DNA of 64,000 nucleotides from Armatimonadota bacterium (GCA_041690135.1 JAWLHY010000009.1:128001-192000); one strand, 5' to 3'; counted from the stretch's first letter, positions 39,802 to 53,247 are shown. The notes: generated by a model from the letters alone, not told the origin. Made by a program: numbers and translations.

Positions 39802-40160
39802 CTAGCTTCCGTCCGATGGGGAGGATGCTTCTTCCAGGCGCAGGCGAAACGAGAAGGTGGAGCCCTCCCCGGGGGTGCTCTCCACCGAGATGTCGCTGCC
39901 GAAGAGCTGCATCAGCTTCTGGCTGATCGCCAGGCCCAGGCTGGTTCCGCCGAACTTCGACATGATTTCGGGAGAGGCCAGGGTGAACTCCTCGAAGATC
40001 GTTCCCAACTGGTTGGCGGGAATGCCGATTCCCGTATCCCGGACGGAGACCTCGACCAACACGGCACCGGGATACCGCTCCACGACTGCCGCATCGATCC
40101 GGATACAGCCGCTGTCGGTGAATTTCACCGCGTTGCCGGCAAGATTCGTCACTACCTGTC
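39802..40160 (-). pseudogene. Truncated histidine kinase (HATPase_c only)
   Basis: NLAGNAVKFT, DTGIGI, GGTSLGLAIS, STPGEGSTF; no H-box or sensor region upstream. Confidence 0.8.
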
Positions 40161-40806
40161 CCCAGAGCTATACCCCATAGGCTCACGACACCTATCTTCG
40201 ACAAATCGAGCTGGGGGCGATGCGCGCTTCTGTTAGATAGGTAGCACCAGGTAAAGAGGAAACCATTGCTCCGTTGTTCGTTTTAGTCTGCTTGCCGGAA
40301 GTTGAAGAGGAAGTATGGTTGCTGGTGTAGAATAGTAGATACGGTAGGGTCCGACGTGCAGCCGAGCTCACGGCCGCCTTGTTATGGGGCAGCCGCTCGC
40401 GCCCCAAGCCGACAAGCGGAGCGTGCGAGGCGAGGAAGGCGTGGAAGGCTGCGGTCAGGGGCGTACCTGTAGGGTGCCGGGTGACCCTTCGACAGCGGGA
40501 GCTTCCTGCTTGCCGCCGATGAATGCGACCAAACGGCTTGAATTCGCATGGTTGCTATTTAGTTCTGCAAGCTAACGGCCGAACCTTAGTCGAGTGATCG
40601 CGAAGAAATAACCCACTGGATGGTTACTCTCGCCACTCCAGGTGCACTACTATTTGAATATACGAGGGCACGCAGGGCGCTTCCCGCCAGCCAGGACTTT
40701 TCCGACCCTTGCCAGCGCTCTCCACCTGGGGACGGACCCGTTAGACGGTCATCTGTAGCTACGCTCGCTCAACGGTGGGCGATCCGGATTACAAAGTGAG
40801 TGAGTC

Positions 40807-42699
40807 ATGTTGCATCGCTTGATCTCCGGAGGGGCACTCCTGTGCACCCTCACGGCAGTTTCCTCCGCCCCCGCGGTGATGGAGAGGATGAGTCGGGTGC
40901 GGCCCGCGCTGGTTCGCTCGGAATCGAAGCCGGCATCCTACCTGGGTGGCTCGACCTCGGGTGATGTGCGCTCCCTCATTGTTCGTGTCCGCGAGCCACA
41001 CCGAGGCGTACAGGCGCTGCGGAAAGCGGGTGCGACCATCACCCGGACGTACTCCCACTTCCCCCTGGTGGCGATTCGCGCCGATTCTGCGATTCTCCAG
41101 CGCGTTCGCGCCTCCCCGGAGGTGTTGCATATCAGCCCGGATGCAGCGGTCCAGCGGACCACGGAGTTCGCCCTCCCGGCGATCAGCGCGGACCTGGCCC
41201 AGCAGTCCGGCGCGAGCGGAAGCGGAGTCGGAATCGCGGTGGTCGACAGCGGCGTAGACCAGCACGAAGACCTCGGTGGGGGCGCTGGTCCCCGTGGCAG
41301 TCGGTGCATTGCCGGTCAGGACTTCCTCACCGGCTCCCAGAAGATGGTGAATAACGACCAGTGCGGTCATGGGACGATGGTCGCGGGTATCGCCGCCGGT
41401 AACGGTCTCGCCAGCACCTACAACGATGGGCGGCGCTGGACGACACGGCGCTTTGCGGGCGTGGCGCCCAAAGCGAACATCATCAATCTTCGGGTGCTGG
41501 ACCAGCACGGCCGGGGCGATGTCGCCACCGTCCTGGCGGCCCTGGACTGGTGCATCCAACATAAGAACCAGTACGGCATCCGGATCGTCAATCTCTCCCT
41601 GGGCCATCCTCCCGTGGAGAGCTACCGGACGGACCCGCTTTGCCAGGCGACCGAGACGGCCTGGAAGTCCGGCCTGGTGGTGATCTGCGCGGCCGGCAAC
41701 CGGGCCCGGGTCAACCAGGACAGCAGCACCGGCGGGAGCCGGTACGGAACGATCAACAGCCCCGGTACGAGCCCGTATGTGATCACCGTCGGCGCGGCGA
41801 AGGACCTCGGTACGGCCTCGCGTGATGACGACGGGGTGGCGAGCTACAGCGGGCGTGGGCCGACTTTGCCGGATCACATCCTGAAACCGGACCTGATCGC
41901 TCCCGGTAACCGCATCATCAGCTTGCGGCATCCCGGCAGCGCACTCGAACGCGCTGCGGACCGCACCAATCTCGTGCCCCTCGATTACTACTGGGTCAAC
42001 CCGATCGCGAAGGGCCGGGAACAGTATTTCAACCTCTCGGGGACGAGCATGGCCGCGGCGATGGTCAGCGGGGCGGTGGCGCTGATGCTCGAGCAGGATC
42101 CCGGCCTCTCTCCCGATACCGTCAAAGCGCGCCTGATGCTCACGGCCCGCAAGGTGTGGCGCGCGGACGGCACCACGCCGGATATCTTCAGCCGCGGTGC
42201 CGGCCTGTTGGACGTAAAACGGGCGCTGTTGTGTCCGGTTACCGCTACCCGCCCCGCCTTCTCCCCCTGGTGCGAGCGCACCGAGCACGGGATCCGGATC
42301 CGGATGCAGCAGAGCCTGACCGGCGAGCAGGCGTTGTGGTCGGACCAGGCGCTGTGGGCGGACCAGGCCCTGTGGGCGGATCAGGCGCTGTGGGCGGACC
42401 AAGCCCTCTGGGCGGATCAAGCGTTATGGGCGGATCAGGCCCTCTGGGCGGATCAAGCGTTGTGGGCCGATCATCACGTGCGCTCGGATCAGGCGCTGTG
42501 GTCGGACCAGGCGCTCTGGGCGGACCAGGCCCTGTGGTCGGACCAAGCCCTGTGGGCGGACCAGGCCCTCTGGGCGGACCAGGCTCTGTGGGCGGACCGC
42601 CAGATACAGGCGGATCAGGCGTTGTGGTCGGATCAGGCGCTGTGGTCGGACCAGGCCTTGTGGGCGGATATCTTCCGCGCATGTATCAGTGGTGATTGA
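40807..42699 (+). CDS. Secreted S8 (subtilisin/AprX-like) serine peptidase with C-terminal hexapeptide repeats
   Basis: Signal peptide, prodomain, triad IAVVDSG / GHGTMVAG / SGTSMAA, oxyanion AAGN. Confidence 0.92.
   Translation: MLHRLISGGALLCTLTAVSSAPAVMERMSRVRPALVRSESKPASYLGGSTSGDVRSLIVRVREPHRGVQALRKAGATITRTYSHFPLVAIRADSAILQRVRASPEVLHISPDAAVQRTTEFALPAISADLAQQSGASGSGVGIAVVDSGVDQHEDLGGGAGPRGSRCIAGQDFLTGSQKMVNNDQCGHGTMVAGIAAGNGLASTYNDGRRWTTRRFAGVAPKANIINLRVLDQHGRGDVATVLAALDWCIQHKNQYGIRIVNLSLGHPPVESYRTDPLCQATETAWKSGLVVICAAGNRARVNQDSSTGGSRYGTINSPGTSPYVITVGAAKDLGTASRDDDGVASYSGRGPTLPDHILKPDLIAPGNRIISLRHPGSALERAADRTNLVPLDYYWVNPIAKGREQYFNLSGTSMAAAMVSGAVALMLEQDPGLSPDTVKARLMLTARKVWRADGTTPDIFSRGAGLLDVKRALLCPVTATRPAFSPWCERTEHGIRIRMQQSLTGEQALWSDQALWADQALWADQALWADQALWADQALWADQALWADQALWADHHVRSDQALWSDQALWADQALWSDQALWADQALWADQALWADRQIQADQALWSDQALWSDQALWADIFRACISGD
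42325..42666 (+). repeat. 18-bp coding tandem repeat: 17 x (D/E)QALW(A/S) plus 2 in-register variant hexads
   Basis: 342 bp = 19 x 18; synonymous codon variation between units. Confidence 0.95.
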
Positions 42700-42793
42700 T
42701 GCGTGGGATAGGTAGCTCGTCGCTGCCTCTCCCCACAACTCAGCAAGTTCAAGCTCGCCCCGCACTCGTTGCCGCGGCTTCGGCTTACCTGTA

Positions 42794-42823
42794 GCCTGCC
42801 GGATGGAAGAGCATCCGGCAGGC
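42794..42823. terminator. Strong hairpin after the S8 gene (terminator or mRNA stabiliser)
   Basis: GCCTGCCGGATG-GAAGAG-CATCCGGCAGGC; no clear U tract. Confidence 0.45.
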
Positions 42824-42979
42824 GTCTACCCTAGCTTCCTTCAATACCGACCGTAGTTTGGCCGGAGAATAGCTGGCAAGGCCGCATCGTTCCCACGGGG
42901 TGGTGCGAGGTGTTTCCTAGCGTAAGTGCGCCTCGCTCTGTACCGGCCATTCGCTGAATCAGCAGAAAGAGTGCCGTCA

Positions 42980-43738
42980 GTGAGATTCCGAAAAGCATTT
43001 ACTTTGATAGAACTGCTGGTTGTTATAGCGATAATTGCTATCTTGGCCGCAATTCTTTTCCCGGTGTTTGCCCAGGCCCGCGAGGCGGCACGGAAGGCGT
43101 CCTGCCTTTCCAACCAGAAGCAAATCGGGATGGCGATCTTGATGTATGCGCAGGATTATGAAGAGGGAATCGTTCCGTGGCTCGCGCCGTCCAATGGCAC
43201 CCCGGCCAGCCAGCGAATCTGGAGCACCCTCCTACAGCCGTACATCAAGAACGGCGCGAACTACTCCAGCACGTCCAGTGGGGTGATGCGGTGCCCCTCG
43301 TGGAGTGAACAGCGAGTGTTGCAGGCGGCCCAGGCATGTGGCACCACCGCCAACGTTGCGCCGATTTTTCCCGCGACCGAGCTCTACTCCAGTTATGGGA
43401 TTGCACTTCCCATCTCTGGAGGCGACGGCTCCGCCGCCAATCCCTACTTCCGGCAGCCAGGCAGTGGCGGCACGGTGGTCACCATCCTCCCTGCGGTGAC
43501 ACGAACCAGTGAAACGGCCATTGTCGCGGATGGCTTCACCGGATTCAAGCAAGGACTGAGCCCGGGCAGCGTGCGGATCGTCTTCGGGTGTGAGGCCCAA
43601 CGCGCGCATAACGAAGGGGGCAACCTGGTCTTCCTGGATGGCCATGCCAAATGGATTAAGGGAAACCCGGAGTCCTACGTATCGCAAAGCTTTAGCGGAT
43701 TGCATTACCAGCGGTACTTCTCCTACGACATGGAATAG
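42980..43738 (+). CDS. Prepilin-type N-terminal cleavage/methylation protein (DUF1559, H-X9-DG)
   Basis: [33 protein letters not shown] ... [16 protein letters not shown]. Confidence 0.9.
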
Positions 43739-43845
43739 GGACGTGCTGCGGGTGTGCCACCTTCGGTTCGACAGCGCGCTAGTGCCGATGGAGCCGGCTC
43801 ACGAGGCGTCGCCAGCCAACAGCAGTTGGACTTCTGGGGATCAAC

Positions 43846-46377
43846 ATGCGTTTTAGCGACCTGCCTCCCCGCCTGAAGTTGTTTATCGCTGGGCATCTGT
43901 GTGTAATTCCGCTGGTCTTCCATGCTCTAGCCAGCGCGCATCTGCGACCGGATTGGTGGTTGGTCGCATTGCTCCTGCTCTCCACGCTGGTTTTCAGCAT
44001 GTGGAAGGTGGAGCTCACCATCTTGCAGGGGCGCATGACCCCGACCTTCGCGGTGGTATGCCTGGCGTTGCTGCTGCAGGGGTTGCCGGCGGCCCTTCTG
44101 TGTGCCGCATTTGGTGCATTGGTTGGAAGCTTCGTGCGCTCGGAACGGGGTGGCTGGACAATCACACTGCTTCGCCCCCAGGCATATCGGGTGTGGTTCA
44201 ACGTAGCCAACTGCGTGCTGGCCTGTGTGACCGCGGCGACCGTCTTCGCCCTTGTAGCGGGATTCCTCCACCACACCGCGTTAGGTAATGTTCTGGGACT
44301 GCTCGCTTTCACTTCCGTCTACTTCGTGATCAATACGGCGGGAGTTGCGACAGCCCTGGCACTCCGAGAGCAGGAGTCATGGGTCTCGATCTGGAAGCTT
44401 AACTTCCTTTGGACGGCTCCCGGATTCTTCGCCTCGGCCTCCGCGGCGGCGGGAATCCGGGCAGCATATCAATACCTCGGGGCCTGGTCCCTTTTGCTTC
44501 TGCCGCCACTCTACCTCGTCTCCTATTCCTACCGGTTGTACATGGACCGGCTGCATCTGTTCTCGGAGAAGATGCAGCAGGACATGGCTCACATCAAAGA
44601 GCTGAACAAGCTTAACCAATCCATCATCGCCTCGCTGGCCACCGCTATCGACGCAAAGGATCACTACACCTGCTCCCACATCAACCGGGTCCAGTGTTAT
44701 GCACTGACGCTCGCACGCGCCGCCGGGCTCGCCGAAGCGGATGTGGAGGCCGTAAAAACAGGGGCGTTGGTGCACGACATCGGGAAGTTGGGAGTACCCG
44801 ATCACATCCTGAACAAACCCGGTAAGCTGACCGCTGATGAGTTCAAACGCATCCAGGCTCATGTAGCGATTGGCGCCGAAATTCTAGAGCCCGTGCCGTT
44901 TCCCTTTCCCGTGGTGGACGTGGTGCTTACGCATCACGAGCGCTGGGATGGGCTGGGTTATCCCAAGGGACTCAAAGCCGAAGAGATCTACATTGGCGGA
45001 AGAATTATTGCGATTGCGGATGTGTTCGATGCCCTCACCTCCGACCGACCCTACCGGCGGGGTCTCTCGGAAGAAGAGGCACTGCGAATTCTGAAGGAAG
45101 GCGCCGGAAAGCAGTTCGATCCGTCCTTGGTGGAGCTGTTCGACCAGGTACTCCCGGAAGCCATCCGGGAGATTGCGGCCATGGAAGCCCAGCACGCCCT
45201 CCAGGCATCCGAGCCCGGAGTCGCGCCGGATGGTCCCTCCGCCTGGGTTCAGATCCGGCAGGCGGCCGTGGAAATGGCTGCCGTTAAAGACGTAGCCCAA
45301 CTCCTGGCCGAGCAGGAGACGGTAGAGGACTTGATGGGAGTTCTGCTCGACCGCACGCTGAACTTGCTACCGGTGGATACCACGATTTGCTACCTGATGC
45401 CACCGGGCGAGACTCAACTGACGGCGACGGCGGTAGCAGGCAAGTACGCGGAGAAACTCACCGGGATGGCAATTCAGCTGGGGGAGGGCATGGCCGGCTG
45501 GGTGGCCGAGAAGCAACAGACGCGGATAAACGTGTCTGCCTCCCTGGACCTGGCGCGGCGGTTCACGCCGGAGGAGGTTATGGAGCTGAGCGCCGCTACC
45601 GCCGTTCCCCTAAAGTCCGACACCGGTACTTTCGGGGTGCTGGCAGTGTACACGATGGCCTACAGCGTTCTTTCCGAGCATCACCTTCACCTGCTGAGCG
45701 TGCTTGCGGAACATGCGGTCCCCGCCTTCCAGAATGTCCAGCGATTCGAGGCACAGCGACAACTCGCGCTTAAAGACTCCCTCACGGGGTTGTTGAACAG
45801 TCGTGCCCTGCTTTCCCAACTGAATCAATTGCTGGGAACTGGCGAGAGACAGGCGAAGGGAAGAGAGGAATGCTTCAGCCTTCTGGTGCTCGACCTGGAC
45901 AATTTCAAAGAGGTTAATGACCGGCTGGGTCACCTGCGGGGCGACGATCTGCTGCGAGCGGTTGCCGCGACGCTGGAAGGGGTGCGCCGGAGTGGGGATG
46001 TGGTTTGTCGCTATGGAGGCGACGAGTTTGTCCTCTTGCTCCCCGGAACGGCAAGAGCACAGGCGGAACAACTGGTGATGCGACTGCGAGAGACTTTTGC
46101 GGCGTTGCCGCCGGTCGATGGGCAGGTGCGAGTGGGTTTGAGCGTGGGCGTGGCGAGTTTTCCGGAAGACGGAGCTACGGGCGACGTACTGCTCCACGTG
46201 GCGGATCGCAGGATGTACGACGACAAACTCCAGCGACGCTGCAGGGTTAGCCGGACACAGGTGCGCGTCCGAAGTCAATCTCTTGCACGGCCCAAGCAGG
46301 CCCGTCCTGTGGGATGCGGCATGGGTGCTCCTTCGCCAGCCCCCCGAACCAGCGGTTGGCATAGTGGACCTGGATGA
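43846..46377 (+). CDS. Membrane sensor (possibly MASE9-like) + HD-GYP + GAF + GGDEF c-di-GMP enzyme
   Basis: About 7 TM N-terminus; HDIGK, HHERWDGLGYP; GAF GEGMAGWV; DNFKEVNDRLGH, RSGD I-site, GGDEF. Confidence 0.88.
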   Translation: MRFSDLPPRLKLFIAGHLCVIPLVFHALASAHLRPDWWLVALLLLSTLVFSMWKVELTILQGRMTPTFAVVCLALLLQGLPAALLCAAFGALVGSFVRSERGGWTITLLRPQAYRVWFNVANCVLACVTAATVFALVAGFLHHTALGNVLGLLAFTSVYFVINTAGVATALALREQESWVSIWKLNFLWTAPGFFASASAAAGIRAAYQYLGAWSLLLLPPLYLVSYSYRLYMDRLHLFSEKMQQDMAHIKELNKLNQSIIASLATAIDAKDHYTCSHINRVQCYALTLARAAGLAEADVEAVKTGALVHDIGKLGVPDHILNKPGKLTADEFKRIQAHVAIGAEILEPVPFPFPVVDVVLTHHERWDGLGYPKGLKAEEIYIGGRIIAIADVFDALTSDRPYRRGLSEEEALRILKEGAGKQFDPSLVELFDQVLPEAIREIAAMEAQHALQASEPGVAPDGPSAWVQIRQAAVEMAAVKDVAQLLAEQETVEDLMGVLLDRTLNLLPVDTTICYLMPPGETQLTATAVAGKYAEKLTGMAIQLGEGMAGWVAEKQQTRINVSASLDLARRFTPEEVMELSAATAVPLKSDTGTFGVLAVYTMAYSVLSEHHLHLLSVLAEHAVPAFQNVQRFEAQRQLALKDSLTGLLNSRALLSQLNQLLGTGERQAKGREECFSLLVLDLDNFKEVNDRLGHLRGDDLLRAVAATLEGVRRSGDVVCRYGGDEFVLLLPGTARAQAEQLVMRLRETFAALPPVDGQVRVGLSVGVASFPEDGATGDVLLHVADRRMYDDKLQRRCRVSRTQVRVRSQSLARPKQARPVGCGMGAPSPAPRTSGWHSGPG

Positions 46378-46566
46378 AGCGAGTAGGAGGTAGGCAGCCG
46401 GTTCCCACCCGGGGAGGTCCAACCCGAAGCAGGATGCAGCGCTCCCTCGGCACAACTCTCGACTATACATATGCGCGATGGCGGAAAGCGCGCCGTATCG
46501 CAACTTCCAGAGGAGACCCTGGAGGTGAGTACGCGGATGGATGGGCGGGGTGAAGGAGGCGTGCCA

Positions 46567-47574
46567 ATGGAGATTCCCGCAGAAACGATGAACGCGGAGA
46601 CCCTCCCCCGGGAAACGGAAACCCTTCGGGTGCTGGCGGTAGACGACGATCCCGCACTTCAAAAGCTCGTGCAGGCCGGGCTGGGTGACCTGGGGTATGA
46701 CGTGGACCTGGCGGGGAGCGTACCTGAAGCCCGGGCCTGCCTCCGGAACCGGCCGTACTCCCTGGTCCTTTCGGACTACGACATGCCGGGCGCCAACGGG
46801 TTGGACCTGCTGGCGTATGTTACAGAGGTCTATCCCGACCTGCCGTTCATCATGCTGACCGGTCACGACGCAACTTCGCTGGCTCGCAGCGCCATCGGCT
46901 CGGGCGCTCTCGACTTTCTCGCCAAGCCATTCGGCATCCAGCAACTGGCGCGGGCCATCGAGCAGAACCGCGCTCGCCTCCAGCGAGAGCGGGCGCGCAC
47001 TGCGGAGCTAACGAGCGAGATCCTCACGGGAACCATCCGGGCGCTGGTGGCCGCCGTGGATGCCAAGGACCCCTACACGGCGTGCCATTCCGAACGAGTC
47101 ACCCGGCTGGCGTTTTGCCTGGGAGAGGCAGTAGGCCTACCTCCCGACCGGCTGCGGGTGCTGGAGTTCGCCACGCTGCTGCACGACGTCGGCAAGATCG
47201 GCGTTCCCGATGCCACGCTGCTCAAGCCGGGTGCATTGGACGAAGCGGATTGGGCTTTGATGAAACAACACCCTATTCGCAGCGCCCAGATCGTGAACCA
47301 GGTGGGCCAACTGGCGGAGGTGGCCAACGTGGTCCGCCACCACCACGAGCGTATTGACGGCAAAGGCTACCCGGACGGCCTGGCCGGCGAGGCGATCCCG
47401 TGGCTGTCGCGTTTTATCGCGGTGGCGGATGCCTACGAGGCCATGACCGCCGACCGGGGCTACCGGCGGGCCCTGCCGGTGAAACAGGTGCGGGAGATCA
47501 TCCGGCAGAACCTGGGCACCCAGTTCGATCCGTACCTCGGGGAGGTTTTCCTCGGTCTTACGGACCTGCCTTGA
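46567..47574 (+). CDS. REC + HD-GYP c-di-GMP phosphodiesterase (RpfG-like)
   Basis: LAVDDD, SDYDMP, AKPF; HSERV, HDVGK, HHERIDGKGYP. Confidence 0.9.
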   Translation: MEIPAETMNAETLPRETETLRVLAVDDDPALQKLVQAGLGDLGYDVDLAGSVPEARACLRNRPYSLVLSDYDMPGANGLDLLAYVTEVYPDLPFIMLTGHDATSLARSAIGSGALDFLAKPFGIQQLARAIEQNRARLQRERARTAELTSEILTGTIRALVAAVDAKDPYTACHSERVTRLAFCLGEAVGLPPDRLRVLEFATLLHDVGKIGVPDATLLKPGALDEADWALMKQHPIRSAQIVNQVGQLAEVANVVRHHHERIDGKGYPDGLAGEAIPWLSRFIAVADAYEAMTADRGYRRALPVKQVREIIRQNLGTQFDPYLGEVFLGLTDLP

Positions 47575-47605
47575 GGTGTGTTGGGCGTTCGGGCGTTGGG
47601 CATTG

Positions 47606-47695
47606 GGCCACCCCTCGGGTGGTAAACATTCAGGCTTTCGGCCACCCCTCGGGTGGTAAACATTCAGGCCCACCTGCGGGGGGGGGGTAAACGTT
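47606..47695. repeat. Tandem 30-bp hairpin repeat (2 exact copies + 1 degenerate)
   Basis: GGCCACCCCTCGGGTGGTAAACATTCAGGC at 47606 and 47640. Confidence 0.8.
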
Positions 47696-47853
47696 GGGAA
47701 TATTTCGTTAGCTGAAGGCCCACTGGTCCGAAGCGCCTCAGGGTACTTGTCAGCGCCCGGTTGGTGGCGTCGGCACGACCCACTCGGGCAGTGAACGACC
47801 CGGCAGTTTTTCGCGGGCGCGCCATTCCCGGAAATTGAGAAGATTAACTAAGA

Positions 47854-48276
47854 ATGTCTGCAAGAACTCGACGGCTCGTTGAACACAGCCTCCTGGCCGC
47901 CTTTTTCGTTGGGCCTTTGCTACACTACTGCGCCGCGATTCTGCTCTTTGGTATGGGAGCCGTCAGCAGTGCGGCGTTCACTTCCGGGGCAGTCGGTAAT
48001 CTCCTCATCGGCGCAATCGCAGGGGTTCTTGCAGTGGCGATTGGCCGGGGACGCCGTATCCATCCCATGCACGTGGCCAACCGGACCAGCATGGTCGCGC
48101 TTTCACTCTGGGCCATCCCCTACTTCGGCATTGCCATAGTGAACAGAGTCGCCCCACAAGTCTACGGCACACTGGGGACGATTGTCGTCGTAATGACTGC
48201 GACAGCCTGGTTGACCGGCTTTCTGGGCATCACGCTTGCGGGCCGCGCATTCCCCCAAGACTGGGATAGTGAGTGA
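47854..48276 (+). CDS. Hypothetical 4-TM membrane protein
   Basis: Four hydrophobic helices. Confidence 0.55.
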   Translation: MSARTRRLVEHSLLAAFFVGPLLHYCAAILLFGMGAVSSAAFTSGAVGNLLIGAIAGVLAVAIGRGRRIHPMHVANRTSMVALSLWAIPYFGIAIVNRVAPQVYGTLGTIVVVMTATAWLTGFLGITLAGRAFPQDWDSE

Positions 48277-48600: not shown

Positions 48601-51600
48601 ATGCCCGACCGCCGCGTCTACCGCCCCACCGCTCTGCTAGGAACTTCCTGGGTCGTCGCTCTCCTGGCCCCAGGCATGGCAGCCCTCTCGCTAACTGCCG
48701 CCCCTTCGCGACCCACCGCCAGACCCGCCCCGCCAGCGGCGAAAGCCGTGTCCCCGCCAGCGGCCGCAAAGCCGGGATCCGGCACCGTTTCGCTTTCCGG
48801 ACCCTGGCGCAAGGGGTACCGGCTGGCCGCGGGCGAGACCGTGGAGATCTCGGTGCACCTCGACCGCCCCTCTGCTCTCCCTCCGAACGGTCGGGTGCGG
48901 GTGGAGTGGACGCTGGAGCGGCCGGACAATCCGGCGGAGGTCGTCCGCACTCCCGAGAAGGGCGGGCCTCGCCCGGTGGACGCGTTCGAGATCTACACCG
49001 CCCCCACCGCCAACTGGCAGAAGGTCCTCCACGCCCTGGACGGAGATGTCTATCTCCTCTACCGCGCGCCGGTGAGCGGCGCCTATAGCCTCAAGCTGGC
49101 GCCCGTTACCGACGAGAAGTGGGTGGGCGACGCGCCCCGCTGGCGAGAGAAGGGTCTGGCCGCGGAAATCTTCCCGCTGCCCCGGCGCACCCCCTGGCCC
49201 CGGGGGGCAGCGGCTTCCGTCTCTCTCTCCGTCCACCGCATCGCCCTCGGCACGGCAGAGCAGGCCCAGCGTCTCGGGAGTGTGGTAGAGGTCGAGCCGA
49301 ACGATACCCCGGAACAGGCGCAGCCGCTCGCGCTGCTGCCGGATGCCCCTCCAACTGGGGGCCAGGGGACCGGGGTCCGCACCTACGAGATCACCGGCAC
49401 TTCGGACGACCTCGAGTATTTCGACAACGGGCGTACCGGCCGCTCCGGCGACGACTGGTTCCGGGTGGAGTTGCAGGGGACCGAGCCCCGGCTGGTGACG
49501 GCGCAGCTCAGCATGCCGGGGCAGTTCCTCGCGGCGCGCATCCGGTGCTATCAATTGCAGAACGGGGCCAGCCCCCGCGTCCCGCTGGGCGCTCTCCTGC
49601 CGATCGCCGAGTACGTGGGGAAGGTCAACCCAGAGCGCCTACCGTGGCAGGAAGGCAAACAGATCCAGTTCCCGGAAGCGCAGGACCCGAACGAGCGGGC
49701 CCACCGGCAGGACGAGCCGCACAGGGCGAACATCAACCGGATCCTGGAGCCGGGCAAGGTCTACTACTTCCGAGTGGAAGCCAATGCCCCCGCCTACCAG
49801 TTCCAGATCCGCGTCTTGAAGCCCGCCCCCTATACCGACCCCCGGATGGCGGTGCGGCAGGCGATGTACACCCAGATCGGGCAGGTGGATGCCTGGCTGA
49901 CCAACCGCCCGCGCGGCGCCAGCCTGGAGCGCCGGATCCGGGACACCGGCAATCTCCTCGGCACCGGGTGCATGAGCTGCCACACCCAGTCCGGGGTCTG
50001 GGGCCCGGCCGTCCCGATCCAGAACGGGTACCGGGTGGAGAACCGGCAGAACTACGACCACCTCCTCAACGTGATGTACGAGTGCCTGCGGCCGACGAAC
50101 GAGTTGAAGGACGCCGCCAACAACAACAGCGTCCCCCCGCTGGATCTCGGCGACGGTCCCGCCGGAACGCGCGTAGCCGGCTTCAACATCGCCACCGTCG
50201 AGCGGGTGATTCCCCCGCGCAAGCTGCACGCGAAGCAGCAGATCCGCGCCGCGAACCACGTCCTCCTCACGGGCGATCCGGACGGGATCAACGCCGCCGG
50301 GCCCGGTTCGAACGTGGGCGAGGCGATCGTCCAGCTCTTCGGCGCGGAGAGCCTGGGCGCCGCCTGGAAGCAGACCGGCGAGCCCCGCTACTTCCGCGCC
50401 CTGGAGACGCGGGCGCGCGAAATCTTGAAGGACGTGCCGGCCTACACCGATGACATCGCCGTCCGGCTCGATTTCTTCGGCCGCGTTTTCCCGTTGGATC
50501 GTTATGCCGAGCAGGCGCGGAAGGCGGCCGAAGCGGAAAAGGCGGCGGGACAGCCCCAGAAGGGCGGCCCCGCGGAGGTCGCGGCACTGATCGAGCAGGC
50601 GCGGGCCCAGGTTCTCCTCGACGAACACCGGCTCCGGCAGATCCAGAACCCGGACGGCTCCTGGGGCTTCCACCCCGGCTCCAGCCCCGATGATGGGAAA
50701 AGCTGGGCCCGCGGCAACAGCGATTGGGACCCCGCGCCCACCGCGCTCGCGATCACCGGCCTGACCTCCCTCGGCCGGACGAAAGATGATCCGGCCATCG
50801 CGAAGGGTGTCCAGGCGCTCCTGCGGATGCAGGACCCGTCCGGCCGCTGGAACAAGGCGGCGATCACCGGCTTCGTCACCACGGGCTATGCCTTGCACGC
50901 GCTGGGCCGTCTCTACCCAGAGAAGCCGCGCACTCCCATGCGGAGCGAGTTCATCCCGCCGGCCGGCGAGACCTTGCCGGCCGCCGTGCGGCGAGTCCAG
51001 GCGCTCGCTCTCACCGGCGAGCCTCGCTTTGCCGACCTGCTGCGCCAGGCCGCCGCCCATCCCAGCCCGCTCGTGCGCTATTGGGCCCTGGTCGGCCTGG
51101 GCACGATCCATACCGACGCCGGGGTGCCGCTCCTGCTCGGCGCACTGAAGGACAGGGCGAAGCCGGTCCGCGACGCCGCCGTCTGGGGACTCCGGCAGAC
51201 TCTCCTCGACGACCGCGGCTGGCCCGCGCTCTTCGCCGCTTACGAAAAGGGCGACGATTATACCCGGGAGGGAGTCCTCCAGGCGCTCGGGATGCGAGCG
51301 GACGCCGTGCTGCCCGGCTCCTCGCTGGATTGGAAGCGCCTGGCGCGGACGCTCGACCGGGCGATGAACGACGACCCGCACCCGGCCGTCCGGGCCTGGG
51401 CGAGCAAGGCCGCCTGGCAGTGGTGGATCTGGAACCCTCCCGTCCGGCCGGCGGTGAATGCCGCTTGGATCCGGATGCTGGCGCGGCCGGAGCCGAACGC
51501 CCTGGTGGAGCACAACAACCGCTACTCCAGCCAGGCGCTCTTCATCGCCAACGGACACCGGGCCAACGGCTCCCAGGAGCACCAGTACCGGGAGCTTTCC

Positions 51601-53247
51601 GCCCTGTTCGAGGCGCTGCGCCAGCGGCTCGAGACCGCGGACCCGCCCACCAAGTCGCGGCTGGCCCGGCGGCTGGTTGCCGTGGGGGCCACCTTCTACC
51701 AGACCGGCGAAGGCGACGGCGGCAGCCCGGGGCAGATGGGCTACGCGACGCCGGGATCCGGCGCCCTGTTCGGGCAGGCGGTCCTCGTCTACCTGCGGGA
51801 AGTGGAGCCTACCCGGGATATCCGCGCCATCACCGCCGGCCTGGAAGGGGCCGCGAACATCCCGCACGGCCCGCTTCAGGAGTTCCTCATCGACTATGCG
51901 CTCAAGGCGCCCGAAGAGCTCCGCCGCACCGCCGCGGAGGCGGTTTCAGACCCCCGCTCCGCAATGCTGGAGGCGGCGCCGGAGCGGGTCGGTCCGCTGA
52001 TCGCCCAGGTGCAGCGGGGCGCGGCAGACCCCGCGCGGCGTCCTACCCTCTCCGATCCGGTGATCAAGCTGTTCGGCTCAATCAACTGGCTGGTTTCGAA
52101 AGACCCTGAGGCGCAGCGCCACTTCCTCGACCTGATGATCCCGAGGTTTGAGCGATACATCAGCCCTGAAGAGATCCGCTCCCTCTCCGATCCCACCGCG
52201 AAGGCGGCGGCAGAGCGGGAGATGGAGGCGGCTTGGTACCTGGCGGATGAGATGGGCGAGGTTTTCGACTCCAATCCGGACCTTCGCCTGGATATGGTCT
52301 TCCGGAAGTACTTTCCGGCGGAGTTCCGGAACCCGCTGGAGCGTCACTTCTGGGTCCGCAGCGTCACCTGGATCCTGGAACACAAGCACGCCCCACCCGC
52401 GGCAGTACCGGCGGGCGAGCAGCCGGGCCCGCCGAAGAAACCGGTTGATCTGAAGGCGGACCCGGGTCTGGTCATCAAGGACCGTGCCCTTCAGCTCTAC
52501 CTCGACGCGCTCCGTCCGGACGCCCTCCCCCAGACCCGCGCCGTCGCCGTGGGGATCTCGAACCGCACGGCGGTCCGGCGCAACCCCGAGGTCCTGCTCG
52601 CGCTCTCCCGGCTTCTGGAGGTGGAGAAGGACGAGCGGCTCCGGAAGATCGCCGAGAACGTGGTCAAACAGGGCTCGGAACGGTTTGTTCCGGACCTGGT
52701 CGAGGCCCTGAAGCACGAAAAGCGGCCCGGCAACGGGCTGATGGAGGACGGAACTGTCAACCCGCTCTTCCTGGAGGACGTCACCTATTTCCGGGACTAC
52801 GTCATCCCCGAGTTCGCCCGGGCGAAGCGCTCCGACCAGAAGACGTGCATGGGCTGCCATGGGAACCCGGGAGCCGTTCCTTCCTTCACCCTGAAGCCGA
52901 CCGACGACTACGGCTACCTTTCCGTCGCCGACCTCCTCTTCAACTACCGGGAGTCGCAGGCGCGCGTCAACCTCGCCGACCTGGAGCGCAGCAAGCTCCT
53001 GCGCAAGCCGCTGAACGTCCAGGACGGAAAGGAAGAGGGTCACCAGGGCGGCCGGCGCTACCTTCCGCAGGACGAGGGCTACCTCATCCTCCGGAAGTGG
53101 GTGGAGAACCAGCCGAAGGTCCGCGCTGCGGTAATGAGCGCCCGCGAGCCGGGACGGCACCCACTAGCAAGCCTGCTTGCTCGACTGCGATCGCCCGCTC
53201 TCAAGCCGCGGGGAGCTAGAGGAGGTGCTCAAGCAGGTCCACGGTGA
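48601..53247 (+). CDS. Large secreted multidomain protein: PPC-like domain, 2 CxxCH motifs, prenyltransferase-like QW repeats, HEAT repeats
   Basis: Signal peptide; EVEPNDTPEQAQ; CMSCH, CMGCH; QNPDGSWG, QDPSGRW; HPSPLVRYWA, DPHPAVRAWA. Confidence 0.8.
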   Translation: MPDRRVYRPTALLGTSWVVALLAPGMAALSLTAAPSRPTARPAPPAAKAVSPPAAAKPGSGTVSLSGPWRKGYRLAAGETVEISVHLDRPSALPPNGRVRVEWTLERPDNPAEVVRTPEKGGPRPVDAFEIYTAPTANWQKVLHALDGDVYLLYRAPVSGAYSLKLAPVTDEKWVGDAPRWREKGLAAEIFPLPRRTPWPRGAAASVSLSVHRIALGTAEQAQRLGSVVEVEPNDTPEQAQPLALLPDAPPTGGQGTGVRTYEITGTSDDLEYFDNGRTGRSGDDWFRVELQGTEPRLVTAQLSMPGQFLAARIRCYQLQNGASPRVPLGALLPIAEYVGKVNPERLPWQEGKQIQFPEAQDPNERAHRQDEPHRANINRILEPGKVYYFRVEANAPAYQFQIRVLKPAPYTDPRMAVRQAMYTQIGQVDAWLTNRPRGASLERRIRDTGNLLGTGCMSCHTQSGVWGPAVPIQNGYRVENRQNYDHLLNVMYECLRPTNELKDAANNNSVPPLDLGDGPAGTRVAGFNIATVERVIPPRKLHAKQQIRAANHVLLTGDPDGINAAGPGSNVGEAIVQLFGAESLGAAWKQTGEPRYFRALETRAREILKDVPAYTDDIAVRLDFFGRVFPLDRYAEQARKAAEAEKAAGQPQKGGPAEVAALIEQARAQVLLDEHRLRQIQNPDGSWGFHPGSSPDDGKSWARGNSDWDPAPTALAITGLTSLGRTKDDPAIAKGVQALLRMQDPSGRWNKAAITGFVTTGYALHALGRLYPEKPRTPMRSEFIPPAGETLPAAVRRVQALALTGEPRFADLLRQAAAHPSPLVRYWALVGLGTIHTDAGVPLLLGALKDRAKPVRDAAVWGLRQTLLDDRGWPALFAAYEKGDDYTREGVLQALGMRADAVLPGSSLDWKRLARTLDRAMNDDPHPAVRAWASKAAWQWWIWNPPVRPAVNAAWIRMLARPEPNALVEHNNRYSSQALFIANGHRANGSQEHQYRELSALFEALRQRLETADPPTKSRLARRLVAVGATFYQTGEGDGGSPGQMGYATPGSGALFGQAVLVYLREVEPTRDIRAITAGLEGAANIPHGPLQEFLIDYALKAPEELRRTAAEAVSDPRSAMLEAAPERVGPLIAQVQRGAADPARRPTLSDPVIKLFGSINWLVSKDPEAQRHFLDLMIPRFERYISPEEIRSLSDPTAKAAAEREMEAAWYLADEMGEVFDSNPDLRLDMVFRKYFPAEFRNPLERHFWVRSVTWILEHKHAPPAAVPAGEQPGPPKKPVDLKADPGLVIKDRALQLYLDALRPDALPQTRAVAVGISNRTAVRRNPEVLLALSRLLEVEKDERLRKIAENVVKQGSERFVPDLVEALKHEKRPGNGLMEDGTVNPLFLEDVTYFRDYVIPEFARAKRSDQKTCMGCHGNPGAVPSFTLKPTDDYGYLSVADLLFNYRESQARVNLADLERSKLLRKPLNVQDGKEEGHQGGRRYLPQDEGYLILRKWVENQPKVRAAVMSAREPGRHPLASLLARLRSPALKPRGARGGAQAGPR

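Follow-up and report, generated by a model that had tools for sequence, protein, structure and literature searches.

The 64,000-nucleotide stretch of Armatimonadota DNA analysed here (GCA_041690135.1 JAWLHY010000009.1:128001-192000; hereafter the window, within which all positions are counted) encodes an S8 subtilase of 630 aa, predicted to be made as a pre-pro-enzyme, that ends in a long array of hexapeptides containing tryptophan (Trp, W) (40807..42699, plus strand; open reading frame (ORF) and Pfam Peptidase_S8), and, downstream of it, a sensor of 843 aa in which a polytopic N-terminus resembling the membrane domain MASE9 is followed by HD-GYP, GAF and GGDEF domains (43846..46377, plus strand; ORF and Pfam). 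Our main finding is that such tailed S8 proteases and MASE9-like sensors have a conserved neighbourhood in two phyla, with the genes arranged in several ways, that the hexapeptide units are under peptide-level selection family-wide, and that the tail is nearly restricted to S8 proteases. We consider it very likely that the pairing is functional. The S8, HD-GYP, GGDEF and GAF parts are ordinary members of known families and the architecture of the sensor has already been described; for the Trp-hexad tail and its pairing with MASE9 sensors, no description was found in the literature, Pfam or NCBIfam.

The tail begins at residue 507 (nucleotide 42325) and comprises 19 hexads, all in one register (42325..42666, plus strand; read from the translation and with Tandem Repeats Finder). 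As the earlier note on this DNA had claimed, 17 of them are canonical (D/E)QALW(A/S) hexads in blocks of eight, six and three, and the variants DHHVRS and DRQIQA lie between the blocks without leaving the register. For the tail DNA (42328..42668), Tandem Repeats Finder reports a period of 18 with 18.9 copies, 78% matches and a score of 328. Among the 17 canonical units, 16 differ in their DNA, and the 12 copies of DQALWA are written as 12 different 18-mers; the non-synonymous differences among the canonical units are one D-to-E and five A-to-S exchanges, the remainder being synonymous. The array is followed by a C-terminal cap, DIFRACISGD, and then the stop codon (cap at 42667..42696, plus strand). 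The cap carries the ending x-[AIV]-[IL]-x-G-[DE] that is found family-wide, and its G629 is a nearly invariant column in an alignment of 88 sequences, which also underlies the full-length structure model and the other invariant columns given below. In the family, three residues stand between the last W hexad and this ending, and the cap as a whole resembles a degenerate last hexad without Trp.

Conservation of the peptide rather than of the DNA, which the earlier note had proposed for the window, proved to be general in the family. When the commonest hexapeptide of each tail was taken for 78 further loci and the window and the DNA of its copies was compared, those 53 tails that contain five or more identical units had on average 90% of their copies as distinct 18-mers, with a mean pairwise nucleotide identity of 0.82, corresponding to about three synonymous differences per unit. 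Within one protein all six residues of the unit are constant, across up to 14 copies, whereas from one protein to another hydrophobic-W-(G/S/A) alone is retained and the remaining three or four positions change, as in the units SNALWG, SSAMWG, NSVIWG, DQSIWG, AQGLWG and TGVVWG. Selection on the tail is unusually strict in that each residue of each copy is held while the codons drift. Structural solenoids and repeat proteins usually fix only their inward-facing positions, the outward-facing ones varying between repeats. Judged from the sequences, a constant junction with a differing remainder is what one would expect if a fixed cleavage site were combined with a peptide body that varies, and the full identity of units would correspond to what multi-copy peptide precursors show.

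In the full-length AlphaFold2 model, residues 517-622 of the tail have a predicted local distance difference test score (pLDDT) of 35-47 and no secondary structure. Modelled alone and with no alignment, the tail forms one long helix (best model: pLDDT 76, predicted template modelling score 0.31), and the five models are inconsistent with one another (mean pLDDT 76, 73, 61, 54 and 45). Such a single helix is unlikely for the family, whose tails are mostly Gly/Ser/Asn-rich, and from these models the tail is probably disordered, lacking a stable fold. A beta-solenoid, which the earlier note had raised as an alternative, found no support, as neither the full-length nor the tail-alone AlphaFold2 run contains any strands. 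Against the repeat families of Pfam, the tail gave no match at expectation values (E) up to 0.01, and it has no match in Pfam or NCBIfam as a whole.

A word-indexed protein search, in which 8000 candidates were scored, gave 5553 matches at E up to 0.001 that represent S8 proteins in general, and the counts for nearest homologs refer to the best 120 of these 5553 matches. These homologs have 427-887 aa and their source names are Armatimonadota, Chthonomonadaceae, Terriglobales or Bryobacterales. Within the last 220 residues, 117 of the 120 have three or more hydrophobic-W-(G/S/A/T) motifs; two or more pairs of W six residues apart are seen in 104, and 110 end in G-(D/E) plus zero to four residues; typical units are NAIWGT, RALWGN, QVIWGT and DSVVWG. 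In the close relatives P0001-P0006, QALW(A/G)D motifs are spaced by long Pro/Thr-rich or Pro/Tyr-rich linkers, so that the motif behaves as a short linear element, and such linker-spaced motifs together with the low pLDDT agree better with short linear motifs than with a folded domain. Some paralogs (L055 at G000:C1:1561000-1580999; P0002/P0006) have most hexads replaced by long low-complexity stretches rich in Pro, Tyr, Asp and Glu (e.g. PPPPDDYYPPP), followed by a few terminal W motifs, and the tail of one close S8 homolog (L040, in G004:C81) holds a masked run of N, read as X in translation, which makes its repeat count unreadable.

The 134 tail residues were also searched on their own against 1.84 billion representatives, giving 361 sequence clusters at E up to 0.001. 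Many of the 150 matches listed are low-complexity proteins with no relation to the tail; of the 143 new ones, 65 show three or more W-W pairs with the two W six residues apart. Pfam scanning of 51 repeat-bearing matches, chosen by eye for six-residue W spacing, identified Peptidase_S8 in 39, PKD in one and no domain in 11; at least six of the latter start inside a recognisable S8 end and are fragments, and some of the 39 S8 forms have inserted Laminin_G_3 domains or long N-terminal extensions. In the genome from which the window comes (9.1 Mb, 25 contigs), two S8 paralogs are the only places where arrays of seven or more such W-W pairs occur, the other six-frame hits being out-of-frame noise, isolated W pairs in non-repeat proteins, WD40-type repeats and a degenerate S8 paralog on contig C1. 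A general anchoring or binding module should be found on many enzyme classes, and this tail is not. As regards copy number, tandem pairs of tailed S8 genes are frequent in the loci of relatives (L043, L045, L049, L051, L053, L158), and one genome (G002) has as many as 10 tailed S8 copies.

The gene neighbourhood was surveyed by searching the S8 protein and the 245-residue transmembrane (TM) domain of the sensor in 41 genomes, namely the window's own and those of 40 relatives, which represent 22 families of the phylum. At E up to 1e-60, the S8 search gives 46 matches in 14 of the genomes, often several per genome and in tandem, and 31 MASE9-like genes are found in 15. Both genes are present in 13 genomes, S8 alone in one (G012), MASE9 alone in two (G006, G007) and neither in 25; in other words, 13 of the 14 genomes with a tailed S8 have MASE9-like genes, as do two of the 27 without. 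A tailed S8 gene is found no more than 1.3 kb away from 13 of the 31 MASE9-like genes, the 12 measured gaps being 19, 27, 36, 58, 58, 98, 291, 369, 370, 870, 1147 and 1278 bp, and in the thirteenth pair the S8 gene is cut by a contig end; four of the 31, on short contigs or at contig starts, have their surroundings outside this count. The window's own genome contains exactly four MASE9-like genes (E below 1e-83 with our own hidden Markov model (HMM)) and four tailed S8 paralogs, of which three of each adjoin, and none of its other S8 matches is near a MASE9-like gene.

A second survey, with one genome per species and the S8 C-terminal alignment as query, yielded 78 loci, mostly from Acidobacteriota (Terriglobia, Bryobacterales) and Armatimonadota. 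In 38 of them the S8 gene has a MASE9-like neighbour no farther than 7 kb away (best-hit E from 1e-24 to 1e-53), which is a lower bound since several loci end at contig ends. In 25 of the 38 paired loci the sensor gene is divergent and directly upstream (head-to-head), 10 have it on the same strand, directly downstream, and three have other arrangements. In searches of whole genomes from this survey, Paludibaculum fermentans (G041) has six MASE9-like genes, four of them paired, and all of its five full-length tailed S8 genes are paired; in G043, two of three genes are paired on each side. The linkage of repeat-tailed S8 genes to such sensors, on which the proposal in the earlier note depends, is thus borne out by both surveys. 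ORF clustering of the 78 loci for further conserved neighbours gave only S8, its antisense shadow ORFs and a sensor/GGDEF cluster, and no family of modifying enzymes of the kind known from RiPPs, peptides made by the ribosome and modified after translation, is conserved next to the tail genes in these loci. In one locus (L158), two tailed S8 genes flank a single MASE9 sensor.

The output of the sensors varies. Beside tailed S8 genes, the MASE9-like domain is followed by HD-GYP-GAF-GGDEF, by HD-GYP-GAF (L058) or by HD-GYP alone (L061), and in other cases by the HisKA-HATPase-REC part of hybrid kinases (L054, L059, L060, L062) or by a hybrid kinase containing PAS (L055). The 38 paired loci of the second survey hold 39 sensor ORFs, 17 with HD-GYP, GAF and GGDEF, 13 with HD-GYP and GAF, four with HD-GYP alone, one with HD-GYP and GGDEF, and four short ORFs with none of these; all complete partners in that survey carry HD-GYP. 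Since the output varies and the membrane input is constant, the protease appears to be tied to the sensor domain and not to cyclic di-GMP (c-di-GMP) as such, which places the link on the side of signal input.

Phylogenetically, the pairing has been gained or lost at least 12 times and is nevertheless clustered on the S8 tree. This tree is a quick tree of 99 catalytic domains, 11 of the 110 candidates having been dropped because they have no serine motif or no 300-residue domain, and the paired state changes 19 times on it, with at least 12 of the changes forced by well-supported branches. With shuffled labels the mean is 33 changes and none of 500 shuffles is as low as 19, relatives not being independent in this comparison. 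We read the repeated re-formation of the pairing, in two orientations, as selection for proximity. For the sensor side, 64 MASE9-like domains were placed in a quick tree, where a single group of eight (support 89) unites the paired sequences from the window's taxonomic family and stands apart from a well-supported unpaired group of six. Co-variation of the repeat unit with the sensor, as envisaged in the earlier note, is seen insofar as the tail units map onto MASE9 clades, a pattern that cannot be separated from shared descent.

With regard to how the two genes could work together, we infer secretion, tail cleavage and its position, peptide release, the direction of information flow and the ligand in the following model. 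The S8 protease would be made as a secreted pre-pro-enzyme resembling Tk-SP of Thermococcus kodakarensis, with a signal peptide, an I9-type N-terminal propeptide, the catalytic domain and the Trp-hexapeptide array. The tail would be a C-terminal pro-region, which the protease would cut in cis or between molecules at the invariant positions where hydrophobic-W meets G/S/A, and the cutting would free many copies of one short amphipathic peptide ending in Trp. In or at the membrane, the adjacent MASE9 domain would perceive this peptide, or the state of cleavage of the tail, and would switch the cytoplasmic HD-GYP/GAF/GGDEF output and so set the c-di-GMP level; in paralogous pairs, the same input domain would drive a hybrid histidine kinase. 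That the tail is a pro-region subject to cutting is suggested by the constant aromatic-small junction, the identity of the units, the restriction to S8 proteases and the predicted lack of a stable fold, and we lean towards the view that it is removed from the protease. The MASE9 neighbourhood, the variable outputs and the proposal of ligand binding within the membrane in turn make the peptide or the cleavage state the best candidate for the sensor input. To the whole chain, from the cut tail through peptide release and reading by MASE9 to the setting of c-di-GMP, we would assign a probability of roughly 0.35. One could further speculate that the tail is a built-in multi-copy precursor and that each protease cuts its own tail into about 17 identical Trp-ended hexapeptides that act as an autocrine or quorum-type signal, perceived by MASE9 inside the membrane, which we regard as a tentative possibility.

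A number of observations weigh against this model. There is no S8 gene within about 8 kb of 14 of the 31 MASE9-like genes, 40 of the 78 S8 loci are unpaired within the DNA examined, and a tailed S8 occurs where there is no MASE9-like match in at least two genomes, G012, which is 99% complete, and G042 with its chromosome of 5.0 Mb (one tailed S8); a tail in genomes without MASE9 and in loci about half of which are unpaired implies that it is of use to the protease itself, in a role that does not need MASE9. The units are not private to a pair either, since three S8-sensor pairs of P. fermentans have the identical unit TGVVWG, and the S8 partners of histidine-kinase sensors have few and heterogeneous W motifs. 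In homologs with long linkers between the motifs, two cuts per peptide would be needed, and the helix of the tail-alone model means that disorder is not certain for the Ala-rich version of the window. In the window itself, the sensor gene lies 1147 bp downstream of the S8 gene with a pilin gene between them, and the S8 belongs to a well-supported clade of five in which the four remaining proteins all lack a paired sensor (one lies where its contig ends), with a ratio of seven unpaired to one in the wider clade of eight. The peptide-signal reading of the earlier note is thus supported in part: the neighbourhood linkage stands, and the unpaired genes and the shared TGVVWG speak against a strict picture of one precursor and one receptor.

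Those tails that have no MASE9-like gene beside them or in their genome, as well as the confinement of the tail to S8 proteases and the precedent of Tk-SP, for which removal of a C-terminal segment is described, would suit a tail that is a mere C-terminal pro-region with no part in signalling, be it a pseudo-substrate or autoinhibitor, an aid to folding or export, or a timer degraded on activation. MASE9 would in that case sense, for example, the state of the envelope or membrane, and the pair would be one regulon in which c-di-GMP or a phosphorelay controls production or secretion of the protease; regulators and their targets typically lie head-to-head and divergent, as the two genes do in 25 loci. 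A pseudo-substrate, however, needs few subsite residues, and here all six are identical across up to 14 copies in spite of many synonymous differences between them. HD-GYP/GGDEF proteins are moreover not DNA-binding, neither a c-di-GMP effector nor a DNA-binding response regulator is conserved in the loci, and an output that changes while the membrane input stays points to the input side as the link; we hold this explanation to be somewhat unlikely. Essentially the alternative of the earlier note is a tail that acts as a sticky element of the surface or matrix, with Trp stickers binding polysaccharide or the envelope, or as a beta-meander, an amyloid-like assembly or a condensate, and that would hold the protease in a matrix under the control of c-di-GMP. 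The regular W spacing, the turn-like G-[DNST] dipeptides, the low-complexity S/N/G/A composition in Acidobacteria and the persistence of the tail without MASE9 are consistent with it, as is the association with enzymes of c-di-GMP metabolism, by which the making of matrix is commonly controlled. Yet binding modules are normally common to many enzyme classes and this tail is found almost only on S8, AlphaFold2 gives no beta structure, all six unit residues are fixed, unlike in structural repeats with their varying outward positions, the long variable linkers between motifs in homologs argue against one contiguous fold, and some partner sensors are histidine kinases and not c-di-GMP enzymes; we therefore judge a sticky tail to be unlikely.

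The adjacency of S8 and MASE9 genes would also be explained if the tail stayed uncut and served as a tethered multivalent ligand or docking element that enters the membrane interface and binds MASE9, with the sensor either reporting on the protease or, inside-out, holding or releasing it, in functional analogy to LapD-LapG. Identical units suit multivalent binding, and its published description gives MASE9 only short periplasmic loops and suggests a ligand site in the membrane. On the other hand, MASE9 is not known to have a periplasmic domain of the kind used by LapD, and the closest solved relative of the protease is described to remove its C-terminal segment; such a tether is quite improbable in our opinion. 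Lastly, S8 and sensor could have become neighbours in this window by rearrangement only and not cooperate here. The intervening pilin gene with the distance of 1147 bp and the otherwise unpaired S8 subclade would fit this, as would the fact that the nearest relatives of the window sensor pair with S8 proteins of another subclade. With only four MASE9-like and four tailed S8 genes in 9.1 Mb, though, the adjoining of three of each makes chance juxtaposition within 1.2 kb very unlikely, and the closest paralog of the intervening pilin is itself located in another S8-MASE9 locus of the same genome; mere rearrangement is hence the explanation to which we give the least credence.

The remaining parts of the S8 protein agree with a secreted protease. 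Its catalytic domain (residues 138-454; 41218..42168, plus strand; pLDDT mostly above 90 in AlphaFold2) matches Pfam Peptidase_S8 (PF00082) with E 1.5e-47 and 162.8 bits, compared with a cut-off of 21.8. The catalytic Asp, His and Ser are present in canonical order together with the oxyanion Asn, as the invariant columns D147, H188, S414 and N298, so that the S8 protease with an intact D/H/S triad described in the earlier note is confirmed. The N-terminal region (40807..40968, plus strand) contains a hydrophobic helix at residues 3-19, modelled at low confidence by AlphaFold2, and is read as a probable Sec signal peptide with linker. It is followed by a putative I9-like N-terminal propeptide (residues 55-117; 40969..41157, plus strand), for which the Pfam match is weak (Inhibitor_I9, PF05922, E 0.0057, 17.7 bits, under the cut-off of 21.2) and AlphaFold2 predicts a beta-alpha-beta domain with pLDDT above 90. 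The solved chains nearest to the window S8 in a phmmer search are 9ues_B and 3afg_A (Tk-SP), both with E of about 1e-38. A scan of 40100-47900 for promoters and terminators gave no promoter-like and four terminator-like sites, not above shuffles.

For the membrane part of the sensor (residues 1-245; 43846..44580, plus strand), the earlier note had proposed about seven TM segments. A polytopic TM region is indeed present, and the seven segments are to be corrected to a divergent MASE9, a domain described with eight. The search with the MASE9 model that the note had suggested gives a match that stays under the cut-off (PF20972, 16.8-18.6 bits compared with 24.3); 17 of 27 homologous domains match MASE9 at E up to 0.1, with a best E of 6.5e-8, and a paralog in the same genome (C1:1569244) is above the cut-off with 25.9 bits. 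Because its score is under the cut-off while relatives match better, we call the domain of the window MASE9-like, a divergent relative. In a crude hydropathy scan of its first 245 residues, hydrophobic stretches extend only to about residue 173. The domain is followed by HD-GYP (residues 266-428; 44641..45129, plus strand; Pfam HD_5, E 4.6e-39, with HDIGK and HHERWDGLGYP read), GAF (residues 491-627; 45316..45726, plus strand; GAF_2, E 5e-10) and GGDEF (residues 642-798; 45769..46239, plus strand; PF00990, E 7.6e-37, and TIGR00254, E 1.8e-39), which matches the described architecture with N-terminal MASE9, MASE9-HD-GYP-GAF-GGDEF. The GGDEF motif and an RxxD I-site (RSGD, five residues before GGDEF) can be read in the translation, RSGDVVCRYGGDEF, and with the signature motifs of their families present, the HD-GYP and GGDEF domains are predicted enzymes.

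The other genes that the earlier note had seen co-oriented with the protease, and likewise its statement that catalytic motifs and RxxD are present, were reproduced by ORFs and Pfam. Between S8 and sensor lies a pseudopilin of type IV or type II secretion system (T2SS) type with N_methyl and DUF1559 domains and an H-X9-DG motif (42926..43738, plus strand; Pfam/NCBIfam). It was rejected as a conserved part of the module, given that pilins are frequent genome-wide, with at least 123 matches of the family in this genome, and that it is not conserved at the other loci. Its closest paralog (G000:C8:117820-118602; 53% identity, E 1.5e-77, compared with 1e-34 for the next) sits between a MASE9-hybrid kinase and an S8 paralog on contig C8, and, judged from these two cases, one subfamily of pilins may accompany the module of S8 and MASE9 within this genome. 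Downstream of the sensor, a response regulator with REC and HD-GYP (46471..47574, plus strand; Response_reg, E 7.5e-24; HD_5, E 5.6e-36) occurs only in this locus and was likewise rejected as part of the module, as no REC is directly beside an S8-MASE9 pair in 40 other loci, the few REC matches there lying several kb from the pair.

Just 3' of the REC-HD-GYP gene, a 34-bp unit is repeated 2.1 times with 94% matches (47599..47669). Upstream of the protease, an ORF on the minus strand (39802..40167, 116-121 aa) has HATPase_c only (E 4e-22), with no HisKA or sensor part upstream of it in any frame, and resembles what is left of a truncated histidine kinase; the interval of about 640 bp between it and the S8 start contains no convincing ORF. 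Further downstream, an ORF of 1548 aa (48601..53247, plus strand) with HEAT repeats, a short squalene-cyclase-like stretch (prenyltransferase fold) and a C-terminal CxxCH-like motif is unrelated.

MASE domains are common yet mostly ligand-less inputs of c-di-GMP and two-component signalling, and the recurring partnership with one kind of secreted protease offers a concrete candidate for what MASE9 reads. If the reading as a multi-copy signal were true, it would give the orphan MASE9 domain its first class of ligand and represent the first peptide-to-c-di-GMP signalling route of its kind, with a design of precursor plus maturase in one gene that is widespread in soil Acidobacteriota and Armatimonadota, and lineage-specific units such as SNALWG, SSAMWG and DQALWA would act as dialects. 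Should the peptide-release model hold, it would be a compact new coupling of extracellular proteolysis to a second messenger in abundant, poorly studied soil phyla; should it fail, the tail would still be an unexplained S8-specific module.

Among known systems, the protease is most readily compared with Tk-SP (3AFG), whose catalytic domain is among the best solved matches (E 8.5e-39, the phmmer alignment covering residues 132-468 of the window protein). As described in PMC3599501, Tk-SP sheds an N-terminal propeptide in maturation and also a segment of about 100 residues at its C-terminal end. The two proteins differ in that the C-terminal parts of Tk-SP are a beta-jelly-roll domain and this segment, which is not presented in that description as a repeat array. 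To our knowledge, Tk-SP has no sensor partner.

The sensor has its counterparts in proteins of the type MASE9-HD-GYP-GAF-GGDEF from the work of Galperin and Chou, whose exact architecture it shares while scoring below the Pfam cut-off. According to their description, MASE9 is a promiscuous membrane sensor domain, occurring among others in this architecture, with eight predicted TM segments, two short ones of which form an intramembrane hairpin, and with no known ligand, binding being suggested within the membrane; the words protease, peptidase and neighbor are absent from the main text of their paper (bioRxiv 10.1101/2021.11.05.467447). Relative to the MASE9 proteins described there, the S8 pairing and the histidine-kinase fusions are additions. 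Hexapeptide-repeat left-handed beta-helices and other beta-solenoids have the six-residue period in common with the tail, and differ from it in that the tail of the window lacks predicted beta structure and has all six positions fixed, not only the inward-facing ones.

A periplasmic or secreted protease paired with an inner-membrane c-di-GMP protein is also found in the LapD-LapG system, in which an inner-membrane c-di-GMP receptor controls a periplasmic protease inside-out. There, however, LapG is a cysteine protease and LapD combines a periplasmic domain with a degenerate GGDEF-EAL part, whereas here an S8 protease is combined with MASE9-like, HD-GYP, GAF and GGDEF domains. Processing by subtilases is well known from yeast, where Kex2 processes alpha-factor from tandem identical copies, and from Bacillus, where subtilisin, Epr and Vpr process Phr peptides; plant subtilases are described as processing the peptide signals IDA and RALF. 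If the explanation that we favour holds, these systems would share with the present one a subtilase that frees short peptides and a membrane receptor that reads them. The receptors are a G protein-coupled receptor, an RRNPP regulator and a receptor kinase in those cases, as opposed to a presumed MASE9 c-di-GMP enzyme or hybrid kinase here, and precursor and protease, which are separate there, would be united in one protein, the repeats being fused to the protease itself. Tandem identical units that are kept at the level of the peptide, by which multi-copy peptide precursors are recognised, are in any case what the tail of this protease consists of.

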